38,747 nt of DNA from Acidimicrobiia bacterium. GTDB taxonomy: Bacteria > Actinomycetota > Acidimicrobiia > Acidimicrobiales > Bin134. Positions 3,274 to 37,036 of the stretch are shown here, one piece after another. Under the pieces are notes generated by a model. The model was not told where the DNA came from and did no database searches. It was given only the letters and a program-made list of their open reading frames with translations. How positions within the stretch are numbered: the stretch's first letter is position 1; every line of letters begins with the position of its first letter. The position numbers and the translations under genes were made by a program. The stretch covers positions 1 to 38,747 of the forward strand of contig JAJEEH010000135.1 in NCBI GenBank assembly GCA_022821105.1. The letters are read 5' to 3'.

Positions 3274-4473
3274 TCAGGCCGTGCCCGCCACCCCGGCTTT
3301 GATCATGGCGGCGATTTCCTCGGGGCTGTAGCCGGCCTCGGCCAGGATCTCCTCGCTGTGCTGGCCCAGCACCGGGGGAGGCCCGGCAATCCCGCCAGGG
3401 GTGTCGTGCAGCCCGATCACCGGACCCAACTGGGGGATCTCGCCCAAAGTGGCGTGCTCCACCGATTGCACCAATCCGGCCTGCTTCACCTGGGGGTGGT
3501 TGAGGATCTGCGAGAAGGTGTGGACCGGCCCGAACAGCGCCCGGTGCTGGTTGAACGACTCCTCCCACTACGCGCTGGTCCGGGTGATGAAGATGCCTTG
3601 CAGAAATTCGGTGAGCTCGGCTCGGGCGTCCACCCGCTGCTGGTTGGTCAGATAGCGCTCGTCGGCAGCCAACTCCGGCTTGCCGATGGCCCGGCAGAAC
3701 CGCTCCCACCCGTCGGCGCCGCCCCACACACCGGTCACCACGTGGCCGTCGGCGGTCTGGAACGCCTCATAGGGCACCACCACGCTGTGGGCGCTGCCAT
3801 GGCGCCCGGGATCCTCGCCGTCCACCCAGTGCGAGGCCAGCCGGGTGGTGAGCGACGACATCAGGGCGAAGAGCATCGAGACATCGATGAGCTGGCCCTT
3901 GCCGGTTTGCTGTCGGGCGAACAGGCCGAGCATGGCGGCCTGGGCGGTGACCAAGGCGCCGGTGAAATCGGCCATTGGGACCCCCACCAGGTTGGGCCCC
4001 CGATCAGGCTCTCCCGTCACCGACATGACCCCCGAGACCGCTTGGACCACCGGGTCGGTTCCCGGATAGGGGGCCAGCGGGCCGTCCGGTCCGAAGGCGG
4101 TGAGGGAGATGTACACAATCTGATCGTTGATAGCCGACAGAGCGTCGTAGCCGATGCCGATCTCGTCGGCCACGCCGGGCCGGTAGCTGGTGACCACCAC
4201 GTCGACGGTGGCGGCCAGGCGATGAACCGCCTCGAGCCCCTCTGGTTTGCGCATGTCCAGAGCGAGGCTGCGCTTGCCCCGATTCCAGATTAGGAACAGC
4301 GCGCTCTCGCCGTCGATGAACGCAGTGCCCACGCCGCGGGCGCCGTCACCATGGGGGAGGCTCTCCACCTTGATGACATCGGCCCCATAGTCGCCCAGAA
4401 TCATGGTGCCGTAGGGGCCGGCCATGTGGCGGGTGAAGTCGAGCACCCGGATTCCGTCGAGGGGCTTGGTCAT
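3274..4473 (-). pseudogene. Family III (CaiB/BaiF/Frc-type) CoA-transferase interrupted by one in-frame TAG (3568..3570)
   Basis: The true start is ATG 4473 (MTKPLDGIRVLDFTRHMAGPYG...), which overlaps the upstream gene's TGA as ATGA. ORF 3568..5205 and ORF 3274..3489 are in the same frame. Reading through the TAG gives ...FITRTSA*WEESFNQHRALFGPVHTFSQILNHPQVKQAGLVQSVEH..., a continuous family-III C-terminal domain. A catalytic-Asp-like motif is present (VPMADFTGA). Confidence 0.8.
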
Positions 4474-5657
4474 GCCCGGCCTCCCGACAGGTCTTCTCCA
4501 ATCAGCTTGTCCAACCCGATTTCGGCGAGGATATCGGCGGTGTCTGCGCCCAGGTCGGGGGGCGGCGGCAGGTCGGACAGGTCGGGTTGGGCGGCTTCGT
4601 CGGGGCTCGAGGAGAGCTGCACCGGTGAGGCGGCCATTTGAACTCGGCCTCCGGGAAGCTCGGTGCCCCGGAGCACCCGGTTGACGGCGGCGTGGTCGCT
4701 GCTGACCGCCTCGTCGAGGGTGAGTATGGGGGCGAAGGGGATCTCGGCTTCGTCGAGAAGGCGGTTCCAGTCGTCGAAGGTGCGCTGGCTGATGGCCTCG
4801 GCGATCAGCGGGAACTCGTCGTCGTATCCGAAGTCCATGCTGTGGGTCCACTCTCCCCGCGCCCTGAGTTGTTGCAGCTCGGCGAGGTCGCAGAACCGCT
4901 CCCAGGCCACCCTCTCCAGCGGGCAGATGAGCAGGGCGCGGTGGTCGGAGGTGGCGTACATGGCATAGCGCGACCCCAGCGAGCGGTACTCGTGCCAGGG
5001 CTCGTCGTTGTTCACCCAGGTGTTCACGTCTCGCCAGTTCCACCACAGTGCGGTGTTCCAGATGGAGGTGTGCACGAATTGGGGTCCGCCGCCCCGGTCT
5101 CGCTTGACGATGGCGGCCAGCACCCCCATGGCGCCGAAAACCCCGGCCAGCAGCACTCCGGCCGAGCGCCACCCGACCCTGGTTTGGGGCTGGCCCTCGT
5201 TCCACTCCACCTCAACCCGGCCGGCCAGCGCGTCCATGTTCTGGCCGTGGGCCTTGTACTCCGCCCACGGTCCGGCCAGCCCGTAGCCCGAGATCACGCA
5301 ATACACGAGCTGCGGGTTGGCCTCGAGGAGGGTGTGGAAGTCGAGTCCCCGGCGAACGGCGTCCTTGGGGCGGGCGCCGACGATCACCGCGTCGGCCCAG
5401 GCAGTGACCCCGGCCACCACGTCGGCCCAGTGGGGCGAGTTGGTGCTGATTGCGATGCTGCGGGTGCCGGGGTTGAGGGCGAGGTGCAGATCGCTGACCC
5501 CGGCGATCTTGGGGTCGTTGCCCCGGTTGCCGTCGCCCTGAACCGGGTGTTCGACCTTGATGACATCGGCGCCCATCTCCACCAGCAGGTGCGAGGCCAG
5601 GGGCCCCGACAAGTGGGTGGAGAAGTCGACGATGCGCAGCGGCGCGGGCCGGGTCAT
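4470..5657 (-). CDS. Family III CoA-transferase paralogue
   Basis: ORF 4470..5657(-). N-terminus LRIVDFSTHLSGPLASHLLVEMGADVIKVEHP, followed by GYGLAGPW and the remaining family-III fold blocks. Its TGA overlaps the ATG of the downstream CoA-transferase. Confidence 0.85.
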   Translation of the reverse strand: MTRPAPLRIVDFSTHLSGPLASHLLVEMGADVIKVEHPVQGDGNRGNDPKIAGVSDLHLALNPGTRSIAISTNSPHWADVVAGVTAWADAVIVGARPKDAVRRGLDFHTLLEANPQLVYCVISGYGLAGPWAEYKAHGQNMDALAGRVEVEWNEGQPQTRVGWRSAGVLLAGVFGAMGVLAAIVKRDRGGGPQFVHTSIWNTALWWNWRDVNTWVNNDEPWHEYRSLGSRYAMYATSDHRALLICPLERVAWERFCDLAELQQLRARGEWTHSMDFGYDDEFPLIAEAISQRTFDDWNRLLDEAEIPFAPILTLDEAVSSDHAAVNRVLRGTELPGGRVQMAASPVQLSSSPDEAAQPDLSDLPPPPDLGADTADILAEIGLDKLIGEDLSGGRA

Positions 5658-5664
5658 CGTCAGG

Positions 5665-6471
5665 TCATCCGAGGATGGCCAGGATTTGGCGGGATTGGCA
5701 CAACAGGGTGCCGTCAGGGGCCCAGATGTCGAGGTCCCAATCCAGGTAGCCGCCGCGGACCAACCCGGTGCGCGACCGCAGAAGCACCATGTCGTCGGCC
5801 TTTGCCTGGGACAGATCGGCCCGGAAATAGGTGGTGTGGTCCAGGGTGGCGGTGGTGTACATGCGGTCGAGGCGCACCCACCAGCCCATCATCCCGATAT
5901 CGCCGATCATCAGCAGACCGGGGGCGTCGATGGGGCGGGCCTGGGCGAAGCCGGCCCATCCCACCCGCTCCATGGGGCCATTGGGCGCGGTGAATGGTCT
6001 CGGCCCGAGGCGGTCTTGCATGACCACGTTGTCGCCGTACGGATAGGCGAACTCGGGAACGTAGCCGTCGGTCTCCCGACCCGGGGTGGGCGGTGCCACC
6101 TCGGGCATGGGCAACTCGTCGAACTCGGGGCTGGGCCGGTCGGTGGCGAAGCTGGCCAACGCGGTGGCGATCAGCTTGTCGCCCTGCACCACCCGGGCCG
6201 ACGTGCTGATGAGCGTGCGGCCCGTGCGGAGCACATCCGTCTGCACCTCGTAGTCGCCTTCCCCCGGCGCTCGCAGCAGATGGGCGGTGAACGACAGCGG
6301 CCGGTACTGGGGGTCGGTGACCGTGGCCGCCAGTCCGGCCATCAACTGCGCTTCCACCAGCCCGGCGGGAACGCGGCCCGAGGCCATCCACGACGGGGGA
6401 GTGGAGGTGAGGAAGCGCCCGTCGCCCAACGGCGTGTGGGCGATGGCCTCGTCGAATGATGCTGCGGTCAC
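5665..6471 (-). CDS. TesB-like acyl-CoA thioesterase (double hot-dog family)
   Basis: C-terminal 268 codons of ORF 5665..6630(-). The GTG start at 6471 overlaps the TGA of the upstream LLM gene (GTGA). Blocks such as TATLDHTTYF resemble the TesB SLDHS.WFH region. The part of the ORF upstream of 6471 is Arg/Gly-rich and overlaps the LLM gene. Confidence 0.65.
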   Translation of the reverse strand: MTAASFDEAIAHTPLGDGRFLTSTPPSWMASGRVPAGLVEAQLMAGLAATVTDPQYRPLSFTAHLLRAPGEGDYEVQTDVLRTGRTLISTSARVVQGDKLIATALASFATDRPSPEFDELPMPEVAPPTPGRETDGYVPEFAYPYGDNVVMQDRLGPRPFTAPNGPMERVGWAGFAQARPIDAPGLLMIGDIGMMGWWVRLDRMYTTATLDHTTYFRADLSQAKADDMVLLRSRTGLVRGGYLDWDLDIWAPDGTLLCQSRQILAILG

Positions 6472-7547
6472 ATGGCCTCCAGTGCCTCGGCCACCTCGTC
6501 GGCCACGGGGGTCAGTGAGGCGGGGATGTCCTCTACGGGCATGGGCGGGACTTCGGCCAGCGCCGGAATGACCTCTCGTCCCATGGTGTCGAGGTAGTCG
6601 ATCACCTCGTCGATGTGCATCTCGGGCCACTGGGGCTTAACCACGAACGGGTCTATTGGCAGCTCACGGGCCACCTCGGTGAAGTGGTCGATCACCTCTT
6701 GGGCCGTGCCCACCGCCACCGAGTGCCTCACCTCCTCGAAGAAGTTGCCCATGAGCGCTTCCTCGTCCAGTATGTCGAGCTCCTTTCGGGCATACGCCAG
6801 GTAGCGCTCCTTGCTGACATCCACGAATCTGGCTCGTGCTTCCTCGTTGGTGGCGCCCACGAAGGCGTTTCGGCGCAGGGGCTGATGGCCCATCGGTTTG
6901 CCCCGCTCGGCGAATCCGGCGGCCATGATGCCCAAACGGACCCGCATCTCATGGATGTCGTACTCCGGCGGGATGATGAACCGGTCGCCCACTCGGCCCG
7001 CCCGCCGAGCGCCCTTGCGGGAGTGCGCGCCCATCCAAATAGGGGGATGGGGTTGCTGCACGCATCGGATATGGGGCGTGGCACCTTGAATCTGCCAATG
7101 CTGGCCGTGGTAGTCGAAGTCCTCCATGGCCCAGCACAGCTTCATGATGTCGAGGCACTCGTCGAACAGGCTCACCCGCTTGCTGATCGGGACATTCATC
7201 AAGTCGAACTCTTCGCTCCGGTATCCGAGCCCGAGGCCGACGTCGAGGCGGCCCCGGGTGACGATGTCGAGGGTGGCGAGCTCCTCGGCCAGGATCACCG
7301 GGTGGTACTTGGGGGCCAGCAGCACGGTGGTGGCCAGCCGCACGTGGTCGTCGATCTCGGCGGCCAGGCGGGCGAGGAGGGGAACCGGCTGGAGCCACCG
7401 CAGGTCGCCGTACAAGAAGTGCTGGCCGATGACGAAATGGCTGAGGCCGTTGCGCTGTCCAGCCTCCACTTGGCGCAGGATGCCGTCGAACTGCTCGAGG
7501 GGGTCCACCTCACGCGGCACGTCGCTGATGATCATGCCGAACTGCAT
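6468..7547 (-). CDS. LLM-class flavin/F420-dependent oxidoreductase
   Basis: Only the last 359 codons of the 756-aa ORF 6468..8738(-) look real: MQFGMIISDVP..., HFVIGQHF, GRLDVGLGLGYRSEEF, PHPPIWMGAHS. ATG at 7547 lies 8 nt after the amidohydrolase stop. Confidence 0.85.
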   Translation of the reverse strand: MQFGMIISDVPREVDPLEQFDGILRQVEAGQRNGLSHFVIGQHFLYGDLRWLQPVPLLARLAAEIDDHVRLATTVLLAPKYHPVILAEELATLDIVTRGRLDVGLGLGYRSEEFDLMNVPISKRVSLFDECLDIMKLCWAMEDFDYHGQHWQIQGATPHIRCVQQPHPPIWMGAHSRKGARRAGRVGDRFIIPPEYDIHEMRVRLGIMAAGFAERGKPMGHQPLRRNAFVGATNEEARARFVDVSKERYLAYARKELDILDEEALMGNFFEEVRHSVAVGTAQEVIDHFTEVARELPIDPFVVKPQWPEMHIDEVIDYLDTMGREVIPALAEVPPMPVEDIPASLTPVADEVAEALEAM

Positions 7548-7555
7548 GGGAACCC

Positions 7556-8812
7556 CTAGACGTCTATGCCGTAGAGCTCGGCGGCGTTGTCCTGGAGCAC
7601 TCGACGGCGGACATGGGGATCGACGTCGGCCAGCACCCGGGCGAAGTGCTCCCGGGCGCCCGGGAACAGGCACGTCGGATGGGGGACATCGGTCTCTACC
7701 AGCACATTGTTGACCCCGACGTCTTCGATGAGCTTGGCCGGGGCCGACCGCTCGAACCAGAACATGACCCAGATGTGGTCGTTGAAATACTCCCGGGGGC
7801 GACGGGAGTTGAGGGCCAGCTCGTGGGCTTCGGTGACCATCTCGTCGTACTGGTACTCGAGGGCTTCGAGGATGAAAGGGACCCAGCCGATGCCGCTCTC
7901 GGCCGAGACGACTCTGAGGTTGGGGTAGCGGTCGAACAGGTCGCTCATGCACAGGTTGACGATGATGCGCACGTTGCTCATGTACATCTGGGTGGCGTGG
8001 ATGGCGAGGCGACGCTGGTGGTCGAACTGCCCCCACCAGGTGTTGGGGGCCACGGGAATGGGCCGGGGCAGGTCGTCGGATCCGGCTTCGCCGCCCACCC
8101 GGGCCTGCTGGAAGCGGGCGCCTCGGATGCTCTCCATCTCGGCCCGGCTCATGCCGGCGCCGATGTGGAAGTTGGCCACCGCTCCCGACTGGTTGAACAG
8201 GTCCCACATGGGGTCGAAGTAGGGCTCCCACAGCTCGGGGAGGCCCACCATCTCGGGCTTGTCGGAGAGGGTGAACCCGGTGACGCCCTTGTCCAGCAGC
8301 CGGGTCATCTCCGCCACGGTGAACTCCATGTCCCAGATCGGGAGCATGGCTTGCGGGAACAGCCAGCCGTTGGACTCGTGCTGCACGTCGACGAAGAAGT
8401 CGTTGTAGATCTCCAGAACCATCCGCCGCTGGGCCAGGTCCTCGATGGCGAAGACGTGGTTGGAGGAGAATCCGACGCCGTTGGGGTACAGGATCTGGGC
8501 GTGGACCCCGATCTCGTCGCAGAGTTCGAGCCGCTCCTTCACGGCCCAGGCGCTGGTGTCGATGACGTCGAAGGGCTGGACCACGTGGCTGCCCAGGATC
8601 TTCTCGTGCCCGGTTTGGATGGTGTTCCCGCCGGTGCTGGCCCACACCTGGCCGTCGAGATACCACGCGGTGATGCCGTCGACCGTCTTCTGCACCGGCA
8701 CTCGGTTGTGCATGGCGGCGGGGGCCCGGGCCGTCCACAGCTCCGGCGGCTCGGTGAAATGGGAATCGCAGTCGATAATCTTCAGGCCGTCTAGCGGGTC
8801 ATGTGCGTTCAT
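7556..8812 (-). CDS. Amidohydrolase_2 (ACMSD/LigW-type metal-dependent hydrolase/decarboxylase) family protein
   Basis: ORF 7556..8812(-), 418 aa. N-terminal metal motif IIDCDSHFTEP, a TIM-barrel-like body, C-terminal VETDVPHP. TAG stop at 7556..7558. Confidence 0.8.
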   Translation of the reverse strand: MNAHDPLDGLKIIDCDSHFTEPPELWTARAPAAMHNRVPVQKTVDGITAWYLDGQVWASTGGNTIQTGHEKILGSHVVQPFDVIDTSAWAVKERLELCDEIGVHAQILYPNGVGFSSNHVFAIEDLAQRRMVLEIYNDFFVDVQHESNGWLFPQAMLPIWDMEFTVAEMTRLLDKGVTGFTLSDKPEMVGLPELWEPYFDPMWDLFNQSGAVANFHIGAGMSRAEMESIRGARFQQARVGGEAGSDDLPRPIPVAPNTWWGQFDHQRRLAIHATQMYMSNVRIIVNLCMSDLFDRYPNLRVVSAESGIGWVPFILEALEYQYDEMVTEAHELALNSRRPREYFNDHIWVMFWFERSAPAKLIEDVGVNNVLVETDVPHPTCLFPGAREHFARVLADVDPHVRRRVLQDNAAELYGIDV

Positions 8813-8884
8813 GGCGTTCTTTCCTTGCTGCGACGGCTAAATCGATCATCGTAAATGGAAGAGTTCTTGCTCACGGGGGTTTCA

Positions 8885-9652
8885 ATGGGAGTGCTCGATG
8901 GAAGAGTAGCGGTTATAACCGCTTCCGGTTCAGGCATGGGCCGGGCCGCGGCCCGGCGCATGGCTGGCGAGGGTGCTCATGTGGTGGTGGCTGATCTTCG
9001 CGCCGATGCCGCCGCGGAGACCGTGGATTTGATCGCCGATGCGGGGGGCGCGGCCAGCGCCTTCACCGTCGATGTCAGCGATGTGGCTCAGATTGAAGGG
9101 TTGATGGCCGAGGTCGGCTCGACTCACGGCAAGATCGACGTTCTCTACGCCCACGCCGGCATACCCGGACCGGCCGGGCTCGACATGAGCGAGGCCGACT
9201 ACGAGGAGACCGCGGCCATCAACATGAAATCGGCCTTCTTCACCGTTGCCCGGGCGGTGCCCCTGTTGGAGGCGTCGGGCAACGCGTCGATCATCCTCAC
9301 CGCTTCCACATCCGGGGTGGTGGGCTCGCCGTTCTCGCCGCTGTACTCGATGACCAAGGGAGCAATCGTGACGTTCGGCAAGTCGCTGGCTCTGGCCCTA
9401 GCCCCCAAGGTACGGGCCAACGTCATCTGCCCCGGCCCGGTGGACACACCCATGCTTCCGCTGTTCTTCGGACGAGAGCCTGGCACCGACGTCAAACCCC
9501 TGATGAAGGAGTTTCTGGAGACTTCGGTGCCTTTGCAGCGCCCATCGCAGCCCGAGGAGATCGCCGAAGTGGCGCTGTTTTTGGCCAGCGATGCCAGCAG
9601 TTTCGTTACCGGCGTGGCACTCCCGGTTGACGGTGGCTACTTGGCCCGATGA
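8885..9652 (+). CDS. SDR-family oxidoreductase
   Basis: ORF 8855..9652(+). The ATG at 8885 gives LDGRVAVITASGSGMGRA (a TGxxxGxG-type NAD(P) motif) near the N-terminus, and the catalytic YSMTK (YxxxK) is present. A GGGGG stretch lies upstream of 8885. Confidence 0.85.
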   Translation: MGVLDGRVAVITASGSGMGRAAARRMAGEGAHVVVADLRADAAAETVDLIADAGGAASAFTVDVSDVAQIEGLMAEVGSTHGKIDVLYAHAGIPGPAGLDMSEADYEETAAINMKSAFFTVARAVPLLEASGNASIILTASTSGVVGSPFSPLYSMTKGAIVTFGKSLALALAPKVRANVICPGPVDTPMLPLFFGREPGTDVKPLMKEFLETSVPLQRPSQPEEIAEVALFLASDASSFVTGVALPVDGGYLAR

Positions 9653-9656
9653 CCCA

Positions 9657-11975
9657 GTGAGCGCCGGAAGGTTCATCGGACAGCGGGTTCTTCGCAAGGA
9701 GGACCGGCGGCTCACCGCGGGGCGGGGCACCTACATCGCCAACATGGAGGTGCCGGGCATGCTTCACGCCCGGTTCGTGCGCAGCAGCGTGGCCCGGGGA
9801 GTGATCCGAGGCATTGACACTCAGGCGGCCAGGGCCCATCCCGGGGTGGTAGATGTGCTCACTGCGACGGAGCTGAACCCGCTGGCCGGGCCGATGTTCG
9901 CCGCGCTGATCGGCGACCTAGTGCCCTATCCGCCGTTGCGGGCCGTGGCTGATGGAGACGTCCGTTTTGTGGGCGAGCCTGTGGCCGTGGTCGTGGCCGA
10001 CAGCCCGTATGCCGCTTGGGATGCCGCCGAATTGGTCGAGGTGGACATAGAGACACAAACGCCAGTAATCGGGGCACAGGTCGCCTTGGAGAACAGCGTT
10101 GATCTGGTCCACCCGGAGCGAGACTCCAACGAGGCCCAGTCGATGCCGCCAACCGACCCTCCGGAGCTAGACGCGGCCTTCCAGTCGGCGGCCCATGTGG
10201 TTACCCGCACGTTCACCCAGTCACGCGCCACCAACGCTCCGATGGAGCCCCGCGGCATCATCGCCAGCTGGACGCCGTTCGCCGACAAGCTCGAAGCCTG
10301 GGTGTCGTCGCAGAATCCCCACGAGTACCACATCCACTTCGCCAACTTGCTCGGAATCGCCAACCACCAGGTCCACGTGCGGATGGGCGACATCGGCGGC
10401 GGGTTCGGCCAGAAGATGATGGTCACCCGGGACGAGGATTGCATCGTGCTGGCCAGCCGGCAGCTGTGCCGGCCAATCAAGTGGATCGAGGACCGCAGCG
10501 AGAACCTGATCTCGGCCAACCAGGCTAGGGCCGAGGTGCTCGAGGTGGCTATGGCATTGGACACCGATGCCCGGATCCTCGGATGCCGGGTGCGCCATGT
10601 GGAGGACGTGGGGGCCTATGCGGTGGGCGGGCACAGCAGCGCGTCGGGCAACCTGGCCCGATTCTTCCCCGGCCCGTATCGCGTTCCTCTCTACGGTTTT
10701 GCCAGCCGGTCGGCCTACACCAACACCGTCGGGCGAGCCGCCTATCGGGGGCCGTGGCTGAGCGAGACCACCGCCCGTGAGCAGATGATGGACCATGTGG
10801 CCCGCGAGCTGGGCATCGACCCGCTGGATCTGAGGCGCCGCAACACGGTGACCGCCGACGAGCTTCCCTACACCACCGCCACCGGCATGGTGTACGAGAA
10901 CGTGTCGCTGCGGGAGTGCCTGGACCAGGCCGCCCAGATGGTGGACTACGACGGGTTCCGCCAGCGCCAGCAGAAGGCCCGGGCCCAGGGCCGTTACCTC
11001 GGTTTGGGCATCAGCTCTTATGTGGAGCCCTCGGGCATGGCGTGGGCATCGTTGGCCACCGAGCAGGTCACCATCCGGATAGACCCTGCCGGCAAAGTGC
11101 GAATCTTCATGGGCAGCGGTGACCACGGGCAGAGCCTGGCCACCACCATGGGCCAACTGGTGGCCGAACATCTGGGTTGCGCGCTGGACGACATCGAGTT
11201 CGTGCAGGGCGATACCGCTGCCACCCCTTTCGGGGCTGGCACCGGCGGAAGCCGGTCAGCGGTCATCGGCGGTGGCGCGGCCATCGGCGCGGCCCGCGAG
11301 CTGCACGCCAAGGTGGCAGAGATTGCCGCCCACCTTCTGGAGGCCGCCGCCGCTGACATCGAGGTGAGCGACGGGGTGGCCTCGGTGGTCGGCACCCCTG
11401 CCCGAAGCATCACGCTGGGCGAGATCGCCGGGATCGCCTACCGCAGCACCGACCAGCTCCCCGCGGGCATGGAACCGGGGCTGGAGGCCAGCAACCGGTA
11501 TCAGCCGCCCAATGTGTTCACGTTTTCCAACGCCACCCACGTCTGCATCTGCGAGGTGGACATCGAAACCGGCCTGGTGTCCCTGGAGCGCTTCGTGGTC
11601 AGCGAGGACTGCGGGCGCATGATCAACCCCATGGTGGTCGACGGCCAGATCGCCGGCGGCGTGGTGCAGGGAATCGGCGGCGTACTGTGGGAGAACATGG
11701 CCTACGACGACCAAGGCAGCCCGCTGGCATCCACCTTCATGGACTACCTCATACCCAGCGCCCCGGAGTTGCCGCCCATCGAGTGCGGCCACATCGAGAC
11801 TTTGTCGAACACCGAGGGGGGCTTCAAGGGAATGGGGGAGGGAGGCACCATCGGCGCCCCCGCGGCGGTAGCCAATGCCGTGGCCGACGCTCTGGCCCCT
11901 CTCGGTGTGCAGGTGGACACGTTCCCCCTCGGGCCCCGCGAAGTGTTCGAGCTCATCCAAAGGGCTCAGCAATGA
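9657..11975 (+). CDS. Xanthine dehydrogenase/CO dehydrogenase-family molybdopterin-binding large subunit (CoxL-like), orphan
   Basis: In-frame GTG at 9657, 4 nt after the SDR stop. Blocks seen: VLRKEDRRLTAGRGTY (a/b-hammerhead N-terminus), GGGFGQK, AYRGPW, GFKGMGEGG (active-site Glu region). No 2Fe-2S or FAD subunit ORF lies nearby. Confidence 0.9.
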   Translation: MSAGRFIGQRVLRKEDRRLTAGRGTYIANMEVPGMLHARFVRSSVARGVIRGIDTQAARAHPGVVDVLTATELNPLAGPMFAALIGDLVPYPPLRAVADGDVRFVGEPVAVVVADSPYAAWDAAELVEVDIETQTPVIGAQVALENSVDLVHPERDSNEAQSMPPTDPPELDAAFQSAAHVVTRTFTQSRATNAPMEPRGIIASWTPFADKLEAWVSSQNPHEYHIHFANLLGIANHQVHVRMGDIGGGFGQKMMVTRDEDCIVLASRQLCRPIKWIEDRSENLISANQARAEVLEVAMALDTDARILGCRVRHVEDVGAYAVGGHSSASGNLARFFPGPYRVPLYGFASRSAYTNTVGRAAYRGPWLSETTAREQMMDHVARELGIDPLDLRRRNTVTADELPYTTATGMVYENVSLRECLDQAAQMVDYDGFRQRQQKARAQGRYLGLGISSYVEPSGMAWASLATEQVTIRIDPAGKVRIFMGSGDHGQSLATTMGQLVAEHLGCALDDIEFVQGDTAATPFGAGTGGSRSAVIGGGAAIGAARELHAKVAEIAAHLLEAAAADIEVSDGVASVVGTPARSITLGEIAGIAYRSTDQLPAGMEPGLEASNRYQPPNVFTFSNATHVCICEVDIETGLVSLERFVVSEDCGRMINPMVVDGQIAGGVVQGIGGVLWENMAYDDQGSPLASTFMDYLIPSAPELPPIECGHIETLSNTEGGFKGMGEGGTIGAPAAVANAVADALAPLGVQVDTFPLGPREVFELIQRAQQ

Positions 11976-13300
11976 GCAGGAGCATCTCCATCGGCAGCGG
12001 GTCGGCGTACTCCACCGATCGGCTGGACTGGGCCCAGGAGCTGGCCGACAGCGGCCTGGTGCAATACATGGGCTTCGACTGCTTGGCAGAGCGGACCATG
12101 GCGCTGGCTCAAGTGCGCCGCCTTGATGACGAGACCGCGGGACACGATCAGCGAATCCCCGAGCTCATGCGCCGCTTCGCCGGGTTCTTGCGCCGGGGCG
12201 GAAAGATGGTGGGCAACTTCGGCGCCGCCAATCCGGCCGCCGCGGCCGATGACGTGCTTCGAGGGCTGAAGCTCAACGGCGTCACCGGGGTGAGGGTGGG
12301 GGTGATCCACGGAGACGACGTGCTCGACCATGTGCTCGACCAGGACTTGGAGCTGCCCGAGATGGGGGTGACCGCCCAGGCCATCGCCGCCCAGGTGGTT
12401 TCGGCCAACGCCTACATCGGCGCCGATCCCATCGTGGAGCTCTTAGAAGAAGGCGCGCAGTTCATCCTCGGCGGCCGCGTCGCCGACCCGTCGCTCTATG
12501 TGGGGCCGATCGCCTATGAGATGGGCTGGGCGCTGGACGACTGGGAGAAGATGGGCACCGCAACCCTGGTGGCCCATCTTCTGGAGTGCGGCACCCACGC
12601 CACCGGCGGGAACTATGTGGATCCGCCCTACCGGGTGCTGGACGATATCGTCCACCTCGGTTTTCCCCTGGCCCACGTGAGCGAGGACGAGCTGGTCATC
12701 ACCAAGCTGGAGGGCACCGGCGGGGCGGTGGACATAGGCACCATGAAGACGCAGTTGGCTTACGAGATCCACGACCCGGCGGCCTATCTCACCCCCGACA
12801 GCACCGCGGACTTCTCACAAGTGTGGGTGGAGGAAGTGGGTCCGAACCGGGTGCGGGTCGGCGGTGCCTCGGGCCGCCCCCGCCCCGACTCTCTCAAGGT
12901 GCTGGTGGGGGTGGACCAGGGGTGGAAGGTGGTGACCGAGATCTCCTACGGCGGCGCGGGCTGCGTGGAGCGGGCTCAACTGGCCGCGGAGGTGGTGGCC
13001 AAGCGCCTGGAGCCGTACCAGTTGGGCATCGACGAGATCCGCTACGACTTCCACGGGATGAGCGCCCTGTTCGACGGCCAGCTTCCCGGCGGCGACCCGG
13101 CTGAGGTGCGGCTTCGCATTGCGGCCCGCTGCGACGATCGGGAGACGGCCGACGCGGTGGCTTTCGAGGGGCAATTCCTGTGGATGGGACCGGCCGGGGG
13201 CGGCGGGGTCACCACCCAGATGGCGCCGGCCATCGGGGTCACCCCCGCCCTGTTGCCCCGTGAGGATGTGAAGCTGATCACCGAGGTCATTGAGGCATGA
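11972..13300 (+). CDS. DUF1446 / AtuA-like (acyclic terpene utilisation family) protein
   Basis: The real start is ATG 11972 (MSRSISIGSGSAYSTDR), overlapping the CoxL-like TGA as ATGA. Length (442 aa) and blocks (GFDCLAERTMA, ANAYIGADPIVE, LLECGTHATGGNY) fit DUF1446. Confidence 0.75.
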   Translation: MSRSISIGSGSAYSTDRLDWAQELADSGLVQYMGFDCLAERTMALAQVRRLDDETAGHDQRIPELMRRFAGFLRRGGKMVGNFGAANPAAAADDVLRGLKLNGVTGVRVGVIHGDDVLDHVLDQDLELPEMGVTAQAIAAQVVSANAYIGADPIVELLEEGAQFILGGRVADPSLYVGPIAYEMGWALDDWEKMGTATLVAHLLECGTHATGGNYVDPPYRVLDDIVHLGFPLAHVSEDELVITKLEGTGGAVDIGTMKTQLAYEIHDPAAYLTPDSTADFSQVWVEEVGPNRVRVGGASGRPRPDSLKVLVGVDQGWKVVTEISYGGAGCVERAQLAAEVVAKRLEPYQLGIDEIRYDFHGMSALFDGQLPGGDPAEVRLRIAARCDDRETADAVAFEGQFLWMGPAGGGGVTTQMAPAIGVTPALLPREDVKLITEVIEA

Positions 13301-13629
13301 AGCTGCGGGAGTTCGCCTACAGCCGCTCCGGCGACAAGGGCGACATCGTGAACCTGTGCGTGTTTGTGTACGACGACGCAAACTGGGAGGTGCTGCGGCG
13401 CGAGCTCACCGTGGAAAAGGTGCGGGACAAGTTCGGCAGCCTGGTCAAGGGCGAGATCACCCGCTACGAGCTGCCCGGCACCAAGGGCCTGAACTTCGTG
13501 ATGACCGAGGCGCTCGGAGGAGGAGTGTCCATGAGTCTCCGAACCGACCCCCACGGCAAGTCCTACCAATCCCTACTCCTAGAAATCGACATCGACGCCG
13601 ACGAGGAGATCAAGCCCCGCCTCGGGTAG
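13297..13629 (+). CDS. Small DUF4387-like protein (corresponds to the AtuA C-terminal domain)
   Basis: 110-aa ORF whose ATG overlaps the DUF1446 TGA (ATGA). The block SRSGDKGDIVNLCVF...LNFVMTEALGGGVSMSLRTDPHGK resembles the C-terminal extension of long AtuA proteins. Confidence 0.6.
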   Translation: MKLREFAYSRSGDKGDIVNLCVFVYDDANWEVLRRELTVEKVRDKFGSLVKGEITRYELPGTKGLNFVMTEALGGGVSMSLRTDPHGKSYQSLLLEIDIDADEEIKPRLG

Positions 13630-13655
13630 CCGTTTAGGCCGGCCGGCTTGTCCGG

Positions 13656-15158
13656 TCAGCCGGCGGCGAGGTGTTCTCGGAGTTCTACTTTGCGGATTTT
13701 GCCGGTGACGGTGCGGGGGAAGCTGTCGACGGCGATGAATTCGTCGGGGACTTTGATCTTGGCCAATCGTTCTGCGCACCAATCCGCCAGCCCGTCGAGC
13801 GACTCTTCGGGTCGGAGCTCGACGAAGGCCACCGGGCGCTCGCCCCACTCGGGGTCTGGGTGCCCGACCACCGCTACTTCGGCAACTGCTGGGTGGTCGT
13901 AGAGCACGGCCTCGATCTCGCTGGGGTAGATGTTGACGCCGCCGCTGATGAGCATGTCTTTGGACCGGCCGACGATGTAGAGATAGCCGTCACCATCTAT
14001 GCGGCCCAGATCCCCGGTTCGCAGCCACCCGTCGACCAGAGCTTCAGCCGTCTGGTCGGGGTTGCGCCAGTAGCCGGCCATCACCTTCTCGCTTTTCACC
14101 CATATCTCGCCCACCTCTCCGGGAGCGACCTCGGCCCCGTTCTCGTCATGGAGTTCGATCCGGACCCCGGGCACGACGCGCCCGCACGAGTCGAGCAACT
14201 CGGGGCGTCCGGCCATGGCCAGGTCGTGGTCTTCGGGCAGCAGTCCGGTGAGGTTGGTAACGCATTCGGAGATGCCGTAGCCCTGGTAGAGCCCGCACCC
14301 GAAGCGCTCATAGGCCTGTTTGATGAGCGGCCCGGCAGTCGGGGCTGCGCCGTAGACGATGAGCCGCAGGCTGGACAGGTCGGCCTCCGCAAAGCCGGGA
14401 TGGTCGAGAATGCGGCGCAGCTGCGCGGGAACCAGGATCGAGATGGTCACCCGGTGCTCAGCCACCGCGGCGAAGAACGACTCCGGCGAGAAGGAGCGCA
14501 GCACCACGTGGGTCTGGCCGTCGGCCAGCATCGAGCACACCCGGGTGCCGGTGGCCGCGTGGTAAAGCGGCGTGGTGGACAAGAACACATCATCGGGTTG
14601 GAACCGCTGCACCAGGGCCATGGTCAGCCCGTTGAAGGCCAAGCCCCGCTGGGTGAGGCACACCCCTTTCGGCCTCCCGGTGGTTCCGCTGGTGTAGATG
14701 ATCAACGCGGTGTCTTGTTCGGTAGCGCGATCCAAATCGGCGAAGGGCTCCGACGCCAGCAGGCTTACGTAAGAGTCGCCGTCGGCATTGATCACCGGGC
14801 CGGTGGCGCCGATGGCCTTCAGGCGTTCGACATATGGGCCGGTTGCCACGGTGAGGATGGGCTCGGCGTTCGACAGGATGTAGGACAGCTCGGGATCGGT
14901 GAGCTGGGTGTTGAGCGGCACTGCCGCCGCGCCCAGATAGGCCACCGCCAGGTAGACGTCGAAAAAGACCAGCCCGTTGTCGGCCATGAGCGCCACCCGG
15001 TCGCCAGTCCCCACCCCCGCAGTCTCCAGACCGCTGGCCAGCCGGAGAACTCGGTCGTGCAGCTCCCCAAAGGAAGCAGATGGCCCTCCGGCAACCGCTA
15101 CCGCAGTCCGCTCGGGGTAGAGCGCCGCATCCCGCTCCAACAGGTCGACTATCCGCAT
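13656..15158 (-). CDS. AMP-dependent acyl-CoA synthetase/ligase (FadD-like)
   Basis: ORF 13656..15158(-), 500 aa. AMP-binding motif IIYTSGTTGRPKGV, then GYGISE, TGDLGRIDGDGYLYIVGRSKD and the C-terminal GKIRK. Confidence 0.9.
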   Translation of the reverse strand: MRIVDLLERDAALYPERTAVAVAGGPSASFGELHDRVLRLASGLETAGVGTGDRVALMADNGLVFFDVYLAVAYLGAAAVPLNTQLTDPELSYILSNAEPILTVATGPYVERLKAIGATGPVINADGDSYVSLLASEPFADLDRATEQDTALIIYTSGTTGRPKGVCLTQRGLAFNGLTMALVQRFQPDDVFLSTTPLYHAATGTRVCSMLADGQTHVVLRSFSPESFFAAVAEHRVTISILVPAQLRRILDHPGFAEADLSSLRLIVYGAAPTAGPLIKQAYERFGCGLYQGYGISECVTNLTGLLPEDHDLAMAGRPELLDSCGRVVPGVRIELHDENGAEVAPGEVGEIWVKSEKVMAGYWRNPDQTAEALVDGWLRTGDLGRIDGDGYLYIVGRSKDMLISGGVNIYPSEIEAVLYDHPAVAEVAVVGHPDPEWGERPVAFVELRPEESLDGLADWCAERLAKIKVPDEFIAVDSFPRTVTGKIRKVELREHLAAG

Positions 15159-15179: not shown

Positions 15180-15593
15180 TCAGACGGGCACGATGTCGAC
15201 AATCTCATTCAAGCCTGCAAAGTCATTGGGGTTGCGAGTGTAGAGGGGCAAGTCGGCGGCGAGAGCGGTCGCAGCGATCATCAGATCGACCGCCCTTGCC
15301 CCGCGGGGTTTCCGCTCGGCGCTGAGGACCGCGGAGAAGACTCGTCCGTAGGCCCGGGCGGCATCGACATCGAATGGCAGAGGATCGAACGCAGCCTCTG
15401 TCCGCTGAAGACGATCTTGCCTCCGGCCTCGCTCCACTCGGTCGTTTGCGGCATGCGGGCCAGCTGCCAGCTCAGCCAAAGTCATGGCGCTGATAGCGAC
15501 CTCGTGCGGGAGGGCCGATGCCTCGATGTGTTCAAGATCGATAATCACCGAAGTGTCCAGCAGCCCGCGAGGTGGTCTGGGCGTCTCAGGCAC
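15180..15593 (-). CDS. vapC: PIN-domain toxin (VapC-type ribonuclease)
   Basis: The GTG at 15593 overlaps the end of the upstream antitoxin by 8 nt. LLDTSVIIDL carries the first PIN acidic residue, followed by TLAELA and LYTRNPNDF. The longer ORF extends to 15653. Confidence 0.75.
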   Translation of the reverse strand: MPETPRPPRGLLDTSVIIDLEHIEASALPHEVAISAMTLAELAAGPHAANDRVERGRRQDRLQRTEAAFDPLPFDVDAARAYGRVFSAVLSAERKPRGARAVDLMIAATALAADLPLYTRNPNDFAGLNEIVDIVPV

Positions 15594-15840
15594 GAGGAGA
15601 TGGATCTTGGTCGGCAACGGCGTCGAGGTCGGCCCGAAGATCCCAGTAGTCAACGCTGGGGGCAGTCCGGAAGAGCTCCACCGCAGCTTCAGCGGAAATG
15701 AAGCGGTGGCGGCGCAGCGGACTCAGCTCGCCTACCGGAACGCCATTGCGAGTCACCGTGAACGTCTTGCCTTCGTCCAGTTCGAGCATGATCTTCCCAC
15801 TGTTGTTCCGCAACTCCCGCTGGCTAATCTCACGGCTCAC
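15586..15840 (-). CDS. Phd/YefM-family type II antitoxin
   Basis: GTG at 15840, preceded by GGAAGT. VSREISQRELRNNSGKIMLELDEGKTFTVTRNGVPVGEL is a typical Phd/YefM N-terminus. It forms the 3' part of the spurious longer ORF 15586..16158. Confidence 0.7.
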   Translation of the reverse strand: MSREISQRELRNNSGKIMLELDEGKTFTVTRNGVPVGELSPLRRHRFISAEAAVELFRTAPSVDYWDLRADLDAVADQDPSPRA

Positions 15841-15913
15841 ACTTCCACTGTAGCACGCCGTGCGACACCTATTCGGATTGTTTGCATCAAACCAGGTTCG
15901 CCAGAAGGCGGGT

Positions 15914-16306
15914 TCAGATTTCGACGAGTTGGAGGGGGGTGTGCTCGGCGATGCGGTCATAGTCGCGGTCGTGGTGGAGTACGGGCACATTGAGGCGGAT
16001 GGCGACGGCCGCGATGAGGGCATCGGTTTGCGAGCGAATGGTGATTCCCCGCCACCTGAGTTCACGGTAGATCGTTGCAGCGTCGAGCCAGTCGAGCTTG
16101 GGGGAGAGCGCCTCGTGTTGCTGGGCTTCCAGCAGCCGTTGAGTTCGGGCGACGGCATCTCGGCGGGCGCCGGCCATGACCTCTAGCAGGATCGGGTCAA
16201 GGGTGATCACCTCTTGATCGGAAATCGCCTGGCGCATCCTCTGGGCCTGGGGAGAGCCTGCCGCAGACAAGAAGTCGACCCAGGCAGAGGTATCAGCTAT
16301 CAGCAC
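15914..16306 (-). CDS. vapC: PIN-domain toxin (VapC-type)
   Basis: The GTG at 16306 (VLIADTSAWVDFL...) overlaps the upstream VapB stop by 14 nt. A PIN-like acidic pattern is present (DTS, LLEV, QTDALIA, HHDRDYD). Confidence 0.75.
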   Translation of the reverse strand: MLIADTSAWVDFLSAAGSPQAQRMRQAISDQEVITLDPILLEVMAGARRDAVARTQRLLEAQQHEALSPKLDWLDAATIYRELRWRGITIRSQTDALIAAVAIRLNVPVLHHDRDYDRIAEHTPLQLVEI

Positions 16307-16523
16307 TGCTGCCCCAATCGGCGAACCGGTTGGCGCGCATGGTGTCGAGGTCGCCGTCCCAGCCGATGCCTTCCATTTCCAATTGCTCTTCAACGGTCAT
16401 CGGTCCGCCACCCAGAAGGCGCTCCAGGGCGAGATGCACCGCCTGGCGCTTTGTGCGAAGCCCGAATGTCTGCATGGCACGCTCAATGAGCTCATCGTCG
16501 ATATCGATGTTGGTCCGACTCAC
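16293..16523 (-). CDS. vapB: VapB-family (ribbon-helix-helix, DUF2191-like) antitoxin
   Basis: (V)SRTNIDIDDELIERAMQTFGLRTKRQAVHLALERLL matches the VapB antitoxin consensus. I prefer the GTG at 16523; the GTG at 16538 is the alternative. Confidence 0.7.
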   Translation of the reverse strand: MSRTNIDIDDELIERAMQTFGLRTKRQAVHLALERLLGGGPMTVEEQLEMEGIGWDGDLDTMRANRFADWGSSADS

Positions 16524-25982: not shown

Positions 25983-27488
25983 GTGAAGGGGTTCATTACC
26001 GTGTTCTTGGCCCTCGGACTGGTCCTCGCCAGCTGCACTTCGGGCGGCGAAGACGCTTCGACAACCGCAGCCGATGGCACGACGCCTGCGGGGACTGCGC
26101 CTGGGGAGGACAGCATGTCGGCCAGCGAATCGGCAGACGACGACAGCCCATCCGCCGCCGAAGCGCCCGACGACGAACGCCCATCCACGGCCGCGGCCCT
26201 TGAGGACGACAGCTCATCTGCCGGTGAAGTGCCCGAAGGCGACAGCAGGTCCACGACTGAGGCCCCCGACGCCGGATACGTTGATCCCTACGCCGACCTT
26301 GAGGGACCGGCACCGGGAGTTACCGACGACACGATCCGGATCGGGATCACTTACATCGACCTAGGAAGTATCGAAGGTTTGACGCTCAATCACGGCGACT
26401 ATGAGGCGAACTACCGGGCCGTGATCGACATGCATAACGCCGCCGGCGGAGTCAATGGCCGGATTCTGGAGCCGGTGTTCGCCCCGATTTCGCTGGCCGA
26501 TGGCGGCAACGCCGATGCGGTGTGTGTGCAGCTAACCGAGGATGAGGAGGTGTTCGTTGTCATGGGCTTCTTCCTCGACGACGCTCCTGCGTGCTACGTC
26601 GAGGGCCACGGGCAAGCGATCATCGGCGGGACGATGACAGAGGACCTATTGGCTCGGGCCAATGCGCCTTGGTTCACGACCGAGATTGGCGGTGACTTTG
26701 AGTTCGAGGCCGCCCAGACTTTCGCTGAGGAAGGGCTGCTCGACGGACCGTTTGCGATCTATGCATCGGTAGCTGAAGAGGGCGTGGTGAATGACTCGAT
26801 CCTTCCAGCACTCGAAGCGGCCGGCGTCGCTCCGCTGGAGATCGCTATCAATGACGCGCCAACCAATGACACCGCGGCGAACGAATCGCTGAACGCAGCG
26901 ATACTTCAGCGGTTTGAGGTCGTTGGAGTGGAGACTGTCCTGGCACCGGGGAACTCGAGCACCTCCTTCGCGCAGGCGCTGGAGACCTCGTCGTACCGGC
27001 CGCGCCTACTGGCGACCAACAGTGGTTCGCTCATCGGATGGATCAACTCGGCCGACGAGCGGGACCTCTCGGTGTTGGACAATGTCGTGGCGGCCAATAC
27101 CTTCGGACCAGACTCGGCGATCTTTTCCGAGCCGCGGCTGGTCGAGTGCATCGATGCAGTGAAGGCCGCTGGCCTGTACTGGATCGGCCCCGATGACTAT
27201 CTCGCCGGTGTCAACCCGGATCAGGAGTTCCAGGAGGGCGAACGACCGTTCGTCTCAACCAGGGCAGCATGCGCGGCGCTGGCCCTGTTTACCCAGATCG
27301 CTACCGCCGCTGGTCCCAACCTGAATTATGCGAGCTTCCAAGCCGCGGGTTACGAAATCGGCGATGTGCAGATACCGGGCATTCCCGACCCGTACTTCTA
27401 CGGTCCGCCGCCATCCAGCGATGGCGATCCTCCGGTGTACCTATACCACTGGGATCAAGCCTCGGAGAGTTTCGTCATTGAGCCGTGA
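25983..27488 (+). CDS. LIV/HAAT-type ABC transporter substrate-binding lipoprotein
   Basis: GTG start after a GGGGGGA stretch. Lipobox in the signal peptide FLALGLVLASC, an acidic Ser/Asp/Pro linker, then GVTDDTIRIGITY, typical of Leu/Ile/Val-binding-protein-family receptors. Confidence 0.8.
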   Translation: MKGFITVFLALGLVLASCTSGGEDASTTAADGTTPAGTAPGEDSMSASESADDDSPSAAEAPDDERPSTAAALEDDSSSAGEVPEGDSRSTTEAPDAGYVDPYADLEGPAPGVTDDTIRIGITYIDLGSIEGLTLNHGDYEANYRAVIDMHNAAGGVNGRILEPVFAPISLADGGNADAVCVQLTEDEEVFVVMGFFLDDAPACYVEGHGQAIIGGTMTEDLLARANAPWFTTEIGGDFEFEAAQTFAEEGLLDGPFAIYASVAEEGVVNDSILPALEAAGVAPLEIAINDAPTNDTAANESLNAAILQRFEVVGVETVLAPGNSSTSFAQALETSSYRPRLLATNSGSLIGWINSADERDLSVLDNVVAANTFGPDSAIFSEPRLVECIDAVKAAGLYWIGPDDYLAGVNPDQEFQEGERPFVSTRAACAALALFTQIATAAGPNLNYASFQAAGYEIGDVQIPGIPDPYFYGPPPSSDGDPPVYLYHWDQASESFVIEP

Positions 27489-30948: not shown

Positions 30949-30963
30949 CCCCTCCCGTGGGAG

Positions 30964-32553: not shown

Positions 32554-32567
32554 AAGGAGCTTGAAAC

Positions 32568-33800
32568 ATGCAATTTCCCGATGGTTTCCTCTGGGGTGCG
32601 GCCACGGCCGGCCATCAAGTGGAGGGCGGCAACATGAATGCCGACATCTGGCCGCTCGAGTGGGCTGAAGAGTCCCTGTTCGCCGAACCCTCCGGCGATG
32701 CCTGCGATCACTACCACCGGTATCCCGAAGACGTCGCGATCATGGCGGATCTCGGGTTCAACGCCTACCGGTTTTCTCTCGAGTGGTCAAGGATCGAGCC
32801 CGAACCCGGTTGGTTCAGCCAGGCCGCGCTCGACCACTACCGCCGGGTCATATAAAGGTGTCAGGAAAACGGGATCACGCCGGTCGTCACGTACTGTCAC
32901 TTCACCACGCCCCGTTGGTTCGCGGGCCAGGGCGGCTGGACCGGGAAAGATGCCGTGGAACACTTCGCCCGCTACGCCGAGCGGGTCACCGCGAAGCTCG
33001 GCGACGTGATGCCGTGGGTGGCCACCCTCAACGAACCAAACGTCATCACCATGCTCGAGCTCACGGGCGTCATCCCGCTCGGCCAGGGCGACCGCGGGCC
33101 GCTGGAGGAGTCACGGGACACGACCCCTTCCGGTGTCGGTGGTTACGACCCTTCTCGCTATCGGATGGGCCTTGTAGGAGCCGGCTGCGAGCGAATGCGG
33201 GAGATCCATCGGGCTGCGGCCGAGGCCATCAAGGCGGGTCCCGGCGACTCGAAGGTGGGCTGGACGCTGGCCCTCGTAGACCTCCAGCCTGGACCGGGGG
33301 GCGAGGAGCGCTGGGCGCGTGCCCGCCAAGGGGCCCAGCTCGACTGGCTCGAAGTCTCCCGCGATGACGATTTTGTCGGCGTGCAGACTTACTCGCGCAA
33401 TGTGCTTGGACCCGATGGCGCGCTTCCAATACCCGATGGGGTCGCCAAGATGCAGACCGGTTGGGAGGTCTATCCCGAGGCACTCGGTCACACGGTCCGA
33501 TTAGCCGCTGAGCACTCGCAGGTGCCGGTTCTGGTCACCGAGAACGGCATGGCCACCGACGACGACGATGCTCGCATTGCCTACACGCGCGACGCGTTGC
33601 GGGGTCTTGCCGCATGCGTGGCCGACGGGGTGGACGTCAAGGGCTATCTGCATTGGACGCTGCTCGACAATTTCGAGTGGATGTCGGGCTTCGCGAAGAC
33701 GTTTGGACTAATTGCCTTCGATCCAGTCGACTTCCGAAGGGCCCCAAAGCCCTCGGCCCGGTGGCTCGGCCAAGTGGCACGTGCCAACGAGATCGAGTAG
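32568..33800 (+). pseudogene. GH1 beta-glucosidase interrupted by one in-frame TAA (32853..32855)
   Basis: AAGGAG RBS before ATG 32568. N-terminus FPDGFLWGAATAGHQVEG, acid/base motif TLNEPNV, nucleophile motif VTENGMAT. ORFs 32568..32855 and 32955..33800 share a frame. Read-through gives HYRRVI*RCQENGITPVVTYCHFTTPRWF, which aligns without gaps to the GH1 consensus. Confidence 0.8.
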
Positions 33801-36996: not shown

Positions 36997-37022
36997 GCCT
37001 CTGGAGTGGAAACCGCTGTCCC

Positions 37023-37036
37023 TGAACGGCCGTTAA
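37023..37036. promoter_or_regulatory. Candidate operator, copy 1: TGAACGGCCGTTAA (10-bp perfect palindrome AACGGCCGTT)
   Basis: Lies in the divergent SDR/tannase intergenic region. The 12-mer TGAACGGCCGTT recurs at 37114. Confidence 0.35.

Follow-up and report, generated by a model that had tools for sequence, protein, structure and literature searches.

The 38.7-kb stretch of acidimicrobial DNA analysed here (contig JAJEEH010000135.1, positions 1 to 38,747; from here on the window) contains between 8885 and 13629 four tightly packed genes on the same strand, which encode a short-chain dehydrogenase/reductase (SDR), a CoxL-like molybdenum (Mo) subunit, the core protein of the AtuA family and a partner of 110 amino acids (aa). 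Comparison with related loci showed that the CoxL-like gene is an accessory, optional insert within a conserved module formed by the SDR and the two-subunit AtuA protein (the AtuA pair). We consider it probable that the SDR and the AtuA pair are the conserved lyase core of a coenzyme A (CoA)-dependent catabolic island, in which CoxL acts as an accessory, ordinary Mo hydroxylase or aldehyde oxidoreductase with its partner subunits encoded elsewhere.

The gene of the SDR (8885..9652, plus strand; 255 aa, classical type, with an alternative ATG at 8855) ends with TGA at 9650-9652, which is followed by four nucleotides (nt), ccca (9653-9656), and by the GTG start of the CoxL-like gene (9657..11975, plus strand; 772 aa). 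An ATGA at 11972-11975 is both the stop of the latter and the start of the gene for the large AtuA subunit (11972..13300, plus strand; 442 aa), and a second ATGA at 13297-13300 joins this gene to that of the small partner (13297..13629, plus strand; 110 aa). The first-pass annotation of the window had described the four genes as one coupled operon, and the 4-nt gap and the two overlaps can indeed be read directly in the sequence. The order SDR-CoxL-AtuA-partner is kept in approximately ten related species or populations. As judged from the gap-pgk-tpi-secG and PIN toxin context and from the nearest genomes, the window belongs to sponge-associated Acidimicrobiia, near 'Candidatus Poriferisocius' / Sva0996.

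CoxL as an optional insert

If AtuA proteins (PF07287) and large subunits of the xanthine dehydrogenase (XDH) family formed a complex, as had been suggested, their genes should be neighbors in other genomes more often than by chance; the outcome was mostly negative. Scanning with an alignment of AtuA proteins, with one genome per species, yielded 80 loci with 10-kb flanks, whose neighboring genes were typed by phmmer. CoxL was located directly upstream of AtuA in seven of the 80 (L013-L016, L022, L043 and L019), all from sponge-type Acidimicrobiia of one genus-level clade and with an AtuA at least 81% identical to that of the window, and it adjoined AtuA in none of the 67 loci outside this clade. 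In locus L083 a set of small (S), large (L) and medium (M) subunit genes in the order S-L-M was found 6-9 kb from AtuA.

Six species (L009-L012, L017 and L018) and a metagenome contig (L001) share the whole island without CoxL, their AtuA being 92-98% identical to that of the window. In these loci the SDR stop overlaps the AtuA start in frame (...cgATGACC[AGC/CGC]A[G/A]GAGCATC); in the window, the GTG of CoxL comes after the same ATGACCCA. The two types of locus differ by a clean in-frame excision or insertion of ~2.3 kb that keeps the translational coupling. In a tree built from the flanking genes for the SDR, the amidohydrolase and the small subunit, the two types are interspersed, both outgroups (L005 and L006) contain CoxL, and L010, which is devoid of it, pairs with L022, which has it (bootstrap 100). 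The simplest reading of this tree is that the ancestor of the clade had CoxL and at least three losses followed, or that CoxL was exchanged by recombination. In L013 (~7620-7700) and L005 (9880-10000) the interval from the SDR stop to the CoxL start contains a partially duplicated SDR 3' end (...ttgccggtcgatggcgg...), which looks like a rearrangement scar at the junction where CoxL was gained or lost.

Since the SDR and the AtuA pair stand without CoxL in the sister loci, an obligate four-protein complex is unlikely. The overlaps had initially been taken to imply a physical complex. This is unlikely: besides the seven sister loci that keep SDR-AtuA-partner, 4-nt overlaps were found to be generic in the island. 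In the divergent operon on the minus strand they occur at two of the four same-strand junctions (GTGA at 6468-6471 between an oxidoreductase and a thioesterase gene; ATGA at 4470-4473 between two CoA-transferase genes), and in the relative L001 at four of six. Stop/start overlaps are therefore usual in this region and tell little about whether the proteins form a complex.

The CoxL-like protein

The protein of 772 aa matches three Pfam domains, all well above the cut-offs (hammerhead, PF01315, 1e-22; MoCoBD_1, PF02738, 9e-62; MoCoBD_2, PF20256, 2e-81), and lies below every equivalog cut-off of NCBIfam. Its best relatives in PDB are the CoxL of 8UEM and quinoline 2-oxidoreductase (~1e-149). The GTG at 9657 as start codon is backed by 772-aa orthologues (89-91% identity, 100% coverage) and by the PDB alignments, which begin at residue 5-10; the gene call of the source annotation is 738 aa long. 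With the three-component hydroxylases of the XDH family (quinoline 2-oxidoreductase 1T3Q, form-I CO dehydrogenase 8UEM/1N5W and 6-hydroxypseudooxynicotine dehydrogenase 7DQX) the protein shares homology over the full length (E 1e-149 to 1e-118), the active-site Gln of GGGFGQK (at 247) and the catalytic Glu of GxGEGG (GMGEGG at 725), but unlike these enzymes it is encoded without adjoining genes for the M and S subunits. Both motifs and the loop AYRGPW are the same in orphan and in partnered relatives. AYRGPW stands in place of AYxCSFR, its Gly aligning with the Cu-binding Cys of 8UEM; the missing Cys rules out a form-I aerobic CO dehydrogenase, and CoxL is used here as a family label only. Two changes in otherwise conserved segments are fixed in the orphan clade, GTGGSRS versus GTAGSRT and EDCGRMINP versus EDCGPMINP.

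The full 772-aa reading frame is present in all nine orthologues compared, none of which has M or S nearby. Their 36 pairs gave a median ratio of nonsynonymous to synonymous substitution rates (dN/dS) of 0.095 (range 0.06-0.12, at dS up to 1.6), which is indistinguishable from the medians of the neighboring genes for the SDR (0.07), AtuA (0.075, from pairs excluding the AtuA of the window), the amidohydrolase (0.09) and the ligase (0.12). Judged from its motifs and these substitution patterns, the orphan CoxL is intact and under strong purifying selection.

The whole window, even at E ≤ 10, yielded no CoxM- or CoxS-like open reading frame (ORF), in agreement with the initial description of a Mo subunit without its usual electron-transfer partners. 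We know of no enzyme of the XDH family without iron-sulfur (FeS) centers. Scattered subunits of Mo hydroxylases do occur: on pAO1 of Arthrobacter the large subunit KdhL of ketone dehydrogenase is encoded apart from KdhMS. The window resembles this case in that the gene of the large subunit lies apart from those of the FeS and flavin adenine dinucleotide (FAD) subunits, but differs in that none of the latter has been located for its organism.

At the other end of the window a second SDR gene (36160-37032, minus strand) and a second CoxL-like gene (33821-36172, minus strand) overlap by 13 nt, and here too CoxM and CoxS are missing from the vicinity. Identity is 46% between the two CoxL-like proteins of the window and 33% between its two SDRs. 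SDR-CoxL pairs without partners are perhaps a module that recurs in this genome.

Relatives with partner genes

The closest CoxL relatives outside the orphan clade occur in several arrangements. In L007 (CoxL 71% identical to that of the window), L116 and L117, M-S-L lies beside a fused CoA-transferase, SnoaL and two luciferase-like (LLM) oxidoreductases. L090 (71%) has GntR followed by SDR-M-S-L, adjoining a set of mesaconyl-CoA hydratase, CitE-like lyase and acyl-CoA dehydrogenase. L089 (70%) shows the order S-L-SnoaL-AtuA-partner. In L091 (61%) CoA-transferases, amidohydrolase and acyl-CoA dehydrogenase are followed by M-S-L, an LLM on the opposite strand, AtuA-partner, PhyH and a ligase, with CoxMSL and the AtuA pair in separate transcription units. 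L004 has no adjacent L and the order M-S-AtuA-partner-PhyH; its S (79-83% identity) and M (65-66% identity) are orthologous to the corresponding subunits of the L007 clade. Here CoxM-CoxS stands directly upstream of the AtuA pair (8558-11631) with a gap of 65 nt and no CoxL, the mirror of the orphan L in the window.

Among CoxL homologues of at most 59% identity, 16 of 19 have the canonical M-S-L order and none lies near an AtuA pair. The background density of CoxL is low, with about two matches in ~1.3 Mb of other flanks, and because of this the recurrent meeting of the CoxL clade with the AtuA pair is more than expected by chance. The gene neighborhoods point to one Mo-hydroxylase clade and the AtuA pair coming together in at least three architectures within catabolic islands of Acidimicrobiia, and to a shared pathway. 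It is probable that the lack of partners is derived and reflects a reduction, M and S being no longer local; alternatively, the orphan may be a duplicated copy of CoxL.

The AtuA pair and citramalate lyase

The AtuA core matches PF07287 with 7.3e-121 over profile positions 1-433 of 437, hence over the full length of the family. That AtuA/DUF1446 has no established biochemical function, as the first-pass annotation stated, is out of date: PDB entries 9ERQ and 9EVF are of the two-subunit citramalate lyase CmlAB of Enterobacteriaceae, an AtuA-family enzyme, the subunits being named 'Acyclic terpene utilization AtuA family protein | Citramalate lyase, subunit A (cmlA)' and 'DUF4387 domain-containing protein | ... 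subunit B (cmlB)'; 9EVF, released in October 2025, is the complex with ADP and pyruvate. According to a preprint of 2026, the two-subunit 'cmlAB' of Raoultella planticola cleaves citramalate directly to pyruvate and acetate (10.64898/2026.01.16.699985). The DUF1446 gene of the E. coli O157:H7 orthologue had been flagged already by Kronen and Berg in 2015 (PMC4682846).

An AlphaFold model of the AtuA core (pLDDT 87) has a single significant Foldseek match in PDB, 9evf_A (E 1.3e-22, TM score 0.73/0.71, 14% identity). With hhalign, core and E. coli CmlA orthologue were aligned at 95% probability (E 2e-8), and the motifs GGRxxDP, LEC and YExxDP, all invariant in an alignment of 25 AtuA sequences, fell on each other. 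By sequence alone the link is weak (phmmer E 0.075, profile E 0.0035). The fold of the model and the shared invariant motifs together show the large subunit to be a homologue, albeit a remote one, of CmlA. The weak profile matches to class II fructose-bisphosphate aldolases (E ~0.8) do not exceed chance level.

E. coli O157:H7 contains orthologues of both CmlAB subunits, ECs_0760 (456 aa, PF07287 9e-19) and ECs_0759 (105 aa, PF14330), encoded with a 4-nt overlap downstream of methylaspartate ammonia-lyase; near-identity to chains A and B of 9ERQ identifies them as CmlA and CmlB, respectively. In RefSeq (Sakai, NC_002695.2, 846933-848617; our locus L093) ECs_0760 is called '3-methylaspartate ammonia-lyase' and ECs_0759 'acyl-CoA synthetase'.

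CmlAB and the AtuA pair have in common a PF07287 large subunit of ~450 aa, whose fold matches the AtuA core over its full length, the three motifs, and a protein of ~105 aa encoded directly downstream with a 4-nt overlap. They differ in the small subunit, which belongs to PF23544 in the window but to PF14330/DUF4387 in CmlB, and in their surroundings: the window harbors no glutamate mutase, methylaspartate ammonia-lyase or mesaconase. CmlAB is CoA independent, whereas the AtuA pair has CoA-transferases, an acyl-CoA ligase and a thioesterase as neighbors, which suggests a CoA ester or a different acid as substrate.

The small protein, initially described as DUF4387-like, has PF23544, the 'AtuA ferredoxin-like domain' (7.5e-29), as its only Pfam match. 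It showed no detectable similarity to CmlB (hhalign probability 1.7%) and no match in PDB, either by sequence or with a profile of 15 sequences; a model built from the single sequence (pLDDT 63, implausibly all-beta) was of too low quality for fold searches. Size, position and the Pfam name are what its presumed equivalence to CmlB as the small lyase subunit is based on. Despite the name of the domain, the protein has no conserved Cys; it therefore cannot replace the ferredoxin subunit of a Mo hydroxylase, and the operon itself is without an FeS carrier.

The separation into a core of 442 aa and a partner of 110 aa, which had been regarded as a peculiarity of the window, is the usual layout: in 75 of the 80 species-level loci the next ORF after AtuA is PF23544-like, and the top 120 AtuA homologues are almost all of ~440 aa, with a few shorter fragments and one of 465 aa. 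The AtuA subfamily of the window alone has more than 5,600 scored homologues. The CmlA structure 9EVF contains ADP, and nucleotide binding is perhaps a general property of the AtuA family; for the fungal member VdAtuA3, binding of the ATP mimetic staurosporine and interaction with the [2Fe-2S] subunit of complex I were reported (PMC13399572).

Another known system with an AtuA protein is the acyclic terpene utilisation cluster atuABCDEFGH of Pseudomonas (Forster-Fromme and Jendrossek, 2006, as cited in PMC13399572). The window resembles this cluster in the Pfam family of AtuA, in the SDR that adjoins AtuA as AtuB does, and in an acyl-CoA synthetase nearby; genes for acyl-CoA dehydrogenase and enoyl-CoA hydratase are found in its relative L091. 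It differs in that the AtuA core and the ferredoxin-like domain are separate proteins. Geranyl-CoA carboxylase (AtuC/AtuF) is absent, since no scanned ORF of the window contained a carboxyltransferase, biotin carboxylase or biotinyl domain. The biochemical role of the Pseudomonas AtuA itself was never shown.

The surrounding catabolic island

The SDR of the operon belongs to PF13561 (adh_short_C2, 4e-56) and PF00106 (3e-43) and carries the Rossmann motif TASGSGMG and the catalytic YxxxK as YSMTK, by which it is a classical SDR. Its conserved N-terminus begins with MGVL(D/E)GRVAV, as in L001.

The operon and its neighbors on both sides probably form a CoA-dependent catabolic island. Upstream, on the minus strand, the divergent operon begins with a protein of the Amidohydrolase_2 family (7556..8812; PF04909, 2.7e-18), which is syntenic in all close relatives, followed by an F420-type LLM oxidoreductase (6468..7547; phmmer score 764 against the L001 orthologue, which matches TIGR03619) and a TesB-like acyl-CoA thioesterase (5665..6471; PF13622 and PF20789), whose GTG start overlaps the LLM stop by 4 nt. 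Then come a family III CoA-transferase (4470..5657; PF02515, 5.6e-65) and a second one (3274..4473), in which an in-frame TAG at 3568-3570 replaces a Glu (TSAEWEES) of the orthologues in L001, L010, L012 and L013; the gene is either a pseudogene or contains a sequencing error. The nearest NCBIfam models of an orthologue of this second enzyme are the succinate-glutarate and succinyl-CoA:mesaconate CoA-transferases, both below the cut-off. On the other side an AMP-forming acyl-CoA synthetase (13656..15158, minus strand; PF00501 and PF13193) is convergent with the operon and is kept beside the AtuA pair across Actinomycetota.

The composition is uniform across the window (~65% G+C). No riboswitch, neither for the molybdenum cofactor nor any other, was found, Rfam giving no match on the whole window, and a scan of 8600-13900 for promoters and terminators gave nothing above the expectation from shuffled sequence. 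Between the island and gap-pgk-tpi there are two genes for PIN-domain (VapC-like) toxins (15183-16396, minus strand), a variable spot at which relatives have a VapB-VapC pair, GntR/FCD regulators or transposases. Further along, a LIV-type transporter cluster includes two single ORFs with unusual domain combinations, one of 740 aa with an MFS_1 transporter domain and an ABC ATPase domain (27482-29704, plus strand) and one of 534 aa with a branched-chain permease domain and an ABC ATPase (30949-32553, plus strand). The adjacent gene of glycoside hydrolase family 1 (32565-33800, plus strand) is split by an in-frame TAA at 32853-32855 (RRVI*RCQENG).

Proposed function

The ligase, the two CoA-transferases and the thioesterase suggest that the substrate of the island would be handled as a carboxylic acid or as a CoA thioester. 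By analogy to the action of CmlAB on citramalate, the AtuA pair may cleave a C-C bond beside a hydroxylated carbon of this acid or acyl-CoA, in a retro-aldol type of reaction that would release an acetate- or pyruvate-like fragment, and the SDR could interconvert hydroxyl and carbonyl. The Mo enzyme would add a hydroxyl derived from water or oxidise an aldehyde product, thereby widening or feeding the pathway. Since the motifs and the selection on CoxL are intact and its clade mates are encoded as M-S-L, it most likely works as an ordinary three-component enzyme; and since the operon has no substitute electron carrier, a supply of the FeS and FAD subunits in trans is favored, assumed here to come from an M-S pair without L or from a paralogous M-S-L operon.

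Several points weigh against this explanation. No coxM or coxS was found in the 16-20 kb flanks of any orphan-type locus, and when the CoxS of L089 was used as query, the homologues obtained were all highly conserved CoxS proteins, none of them attributable to 'Ca. Poriferisocius'. The AtuA core and CmlA share only 14% identity and the small subunit has no detectable sequence similarity to CmlB, so that lyase chemistry is transferred to the AtuA pair by inference; for this subfamily, the activities of both the AtuA pair and CoxL are predictions from sequence. The repeated loss of CoxL and the two window genes interrupted by nonsense codons are also compatible with a decaying island.

In a rival reading, an ancestral cluster of M-S-L and the AtuA pair is being lost piece by piece, and the orphan L is a non-working remnant that will be deleted in turn. 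This reading draws on the absence of M and S from the locus, on at least three deletions of L among close relatives, on L004, which keeps the complementary remnant M-S without L, and on the in-frame stops in the CoA-transferase and glycoside hydrolase genes. Yet a non-working subunit would hardly have kept its full frame in nine of nine orthologues and all its cofactor and catalytic motifs, at a dN/dS as low as that of its neighbors, and we regard decay of CoxL as very unlikely. That a lineage-specific rearrangement brought CoxL into the operon, its task belonging to an unrelated pathway and its position being without functional meaning, would agree with the absence of the adjacency outside the one clade, with the dispensability of L and with the abundance of CoxL paralogues in the genome, including the second SDR-CoxL pair at 33821-37032. 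It is difficult to reconcile with the same CoxL clade occurring near AtuA pairs in three architectures (L089, L091 and the window) against so low a background of CoxL genes, with the cognate M-S beside the AtuA pair in L004, and with the company that the clade keeps elsewhere (CoA-transferase III, F420-type LLMs, SnoaL and SDR). A mere hitch-hiker therefore seems unlikely to us.

The remaining alternative is a new hydroxylase-lyase machine, in which the partnerless Mo subunit works without [2Fe-2S] and FAD subunits and docks on the AtuA heterodimer, on the SDR or on both. The tight coupling of the genes would fit it, as would the ~10 species or populations that keep L without M or S within 8-10 kb or more, the purifying selection on L and the orphan clade's own fixed changes (GTGGSRS, EDCGRMINP). 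Against it stands the precise deletion of L in seven sister loci, which leaves the SDR and the AtuA pair intact and still coupled. Moreover, the operon encodes no protein that could relay electrons from Mo, the small protein having no conserved Cys and the SDR being a nicotinamide enzyme; the CoxL relatives at 61-72% identity all have partner genes; in L091 CoxMSL and the AtuA pair are separate transcription units; and 4-nt overlaps are generic in the island. We find such a machine highly improbable, and about as improbable an orphan CoxL that has become independent of the [2Fe-2S] and FAD subunits, whether it acts alone as a Mo enzyme or with a new partner, which would be the SDR or the AtuA heterodimer. 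Our preferred explanation thus remains that of a conserved SDR and AtuA pair with an accessory, ordinary Mo enzyme. As the first-pass annotation had noted, the gene association is not a described system; the locus is a lineage-specific variant of known parts and at present no pointer to a new class of enzyme complexes.

Implications

The AtuA family is large, and only its distant member CmlAB has a known reaction; the CmlA fold now offers a structural handle on the subfamily found in the window. In Actinomycetota this subfamily lies nearly always beside an acyl-CoA synthetase, a CoA-transferase and an F420-type oxidoreductase, and this constant company makes it a good target in the search for a new C-C cleavage step in the catabolism of acids and acyl-CoA esters. 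If CoxL were after all independent of its usual partners, it would be the first molybdoenzyme of the XDH family without an iron-sulfur relay, coupled directly to a C-C lyase. The island also provides a natural experiment, in that the sole difference between closely related sponge symbionts is whether they have the partnerless Mo subunit, which is under selection, while related lineages keep the complementary M-S pair. The locus could thus show how multi-subunit molybdoenzymes share or exchange their subunits.

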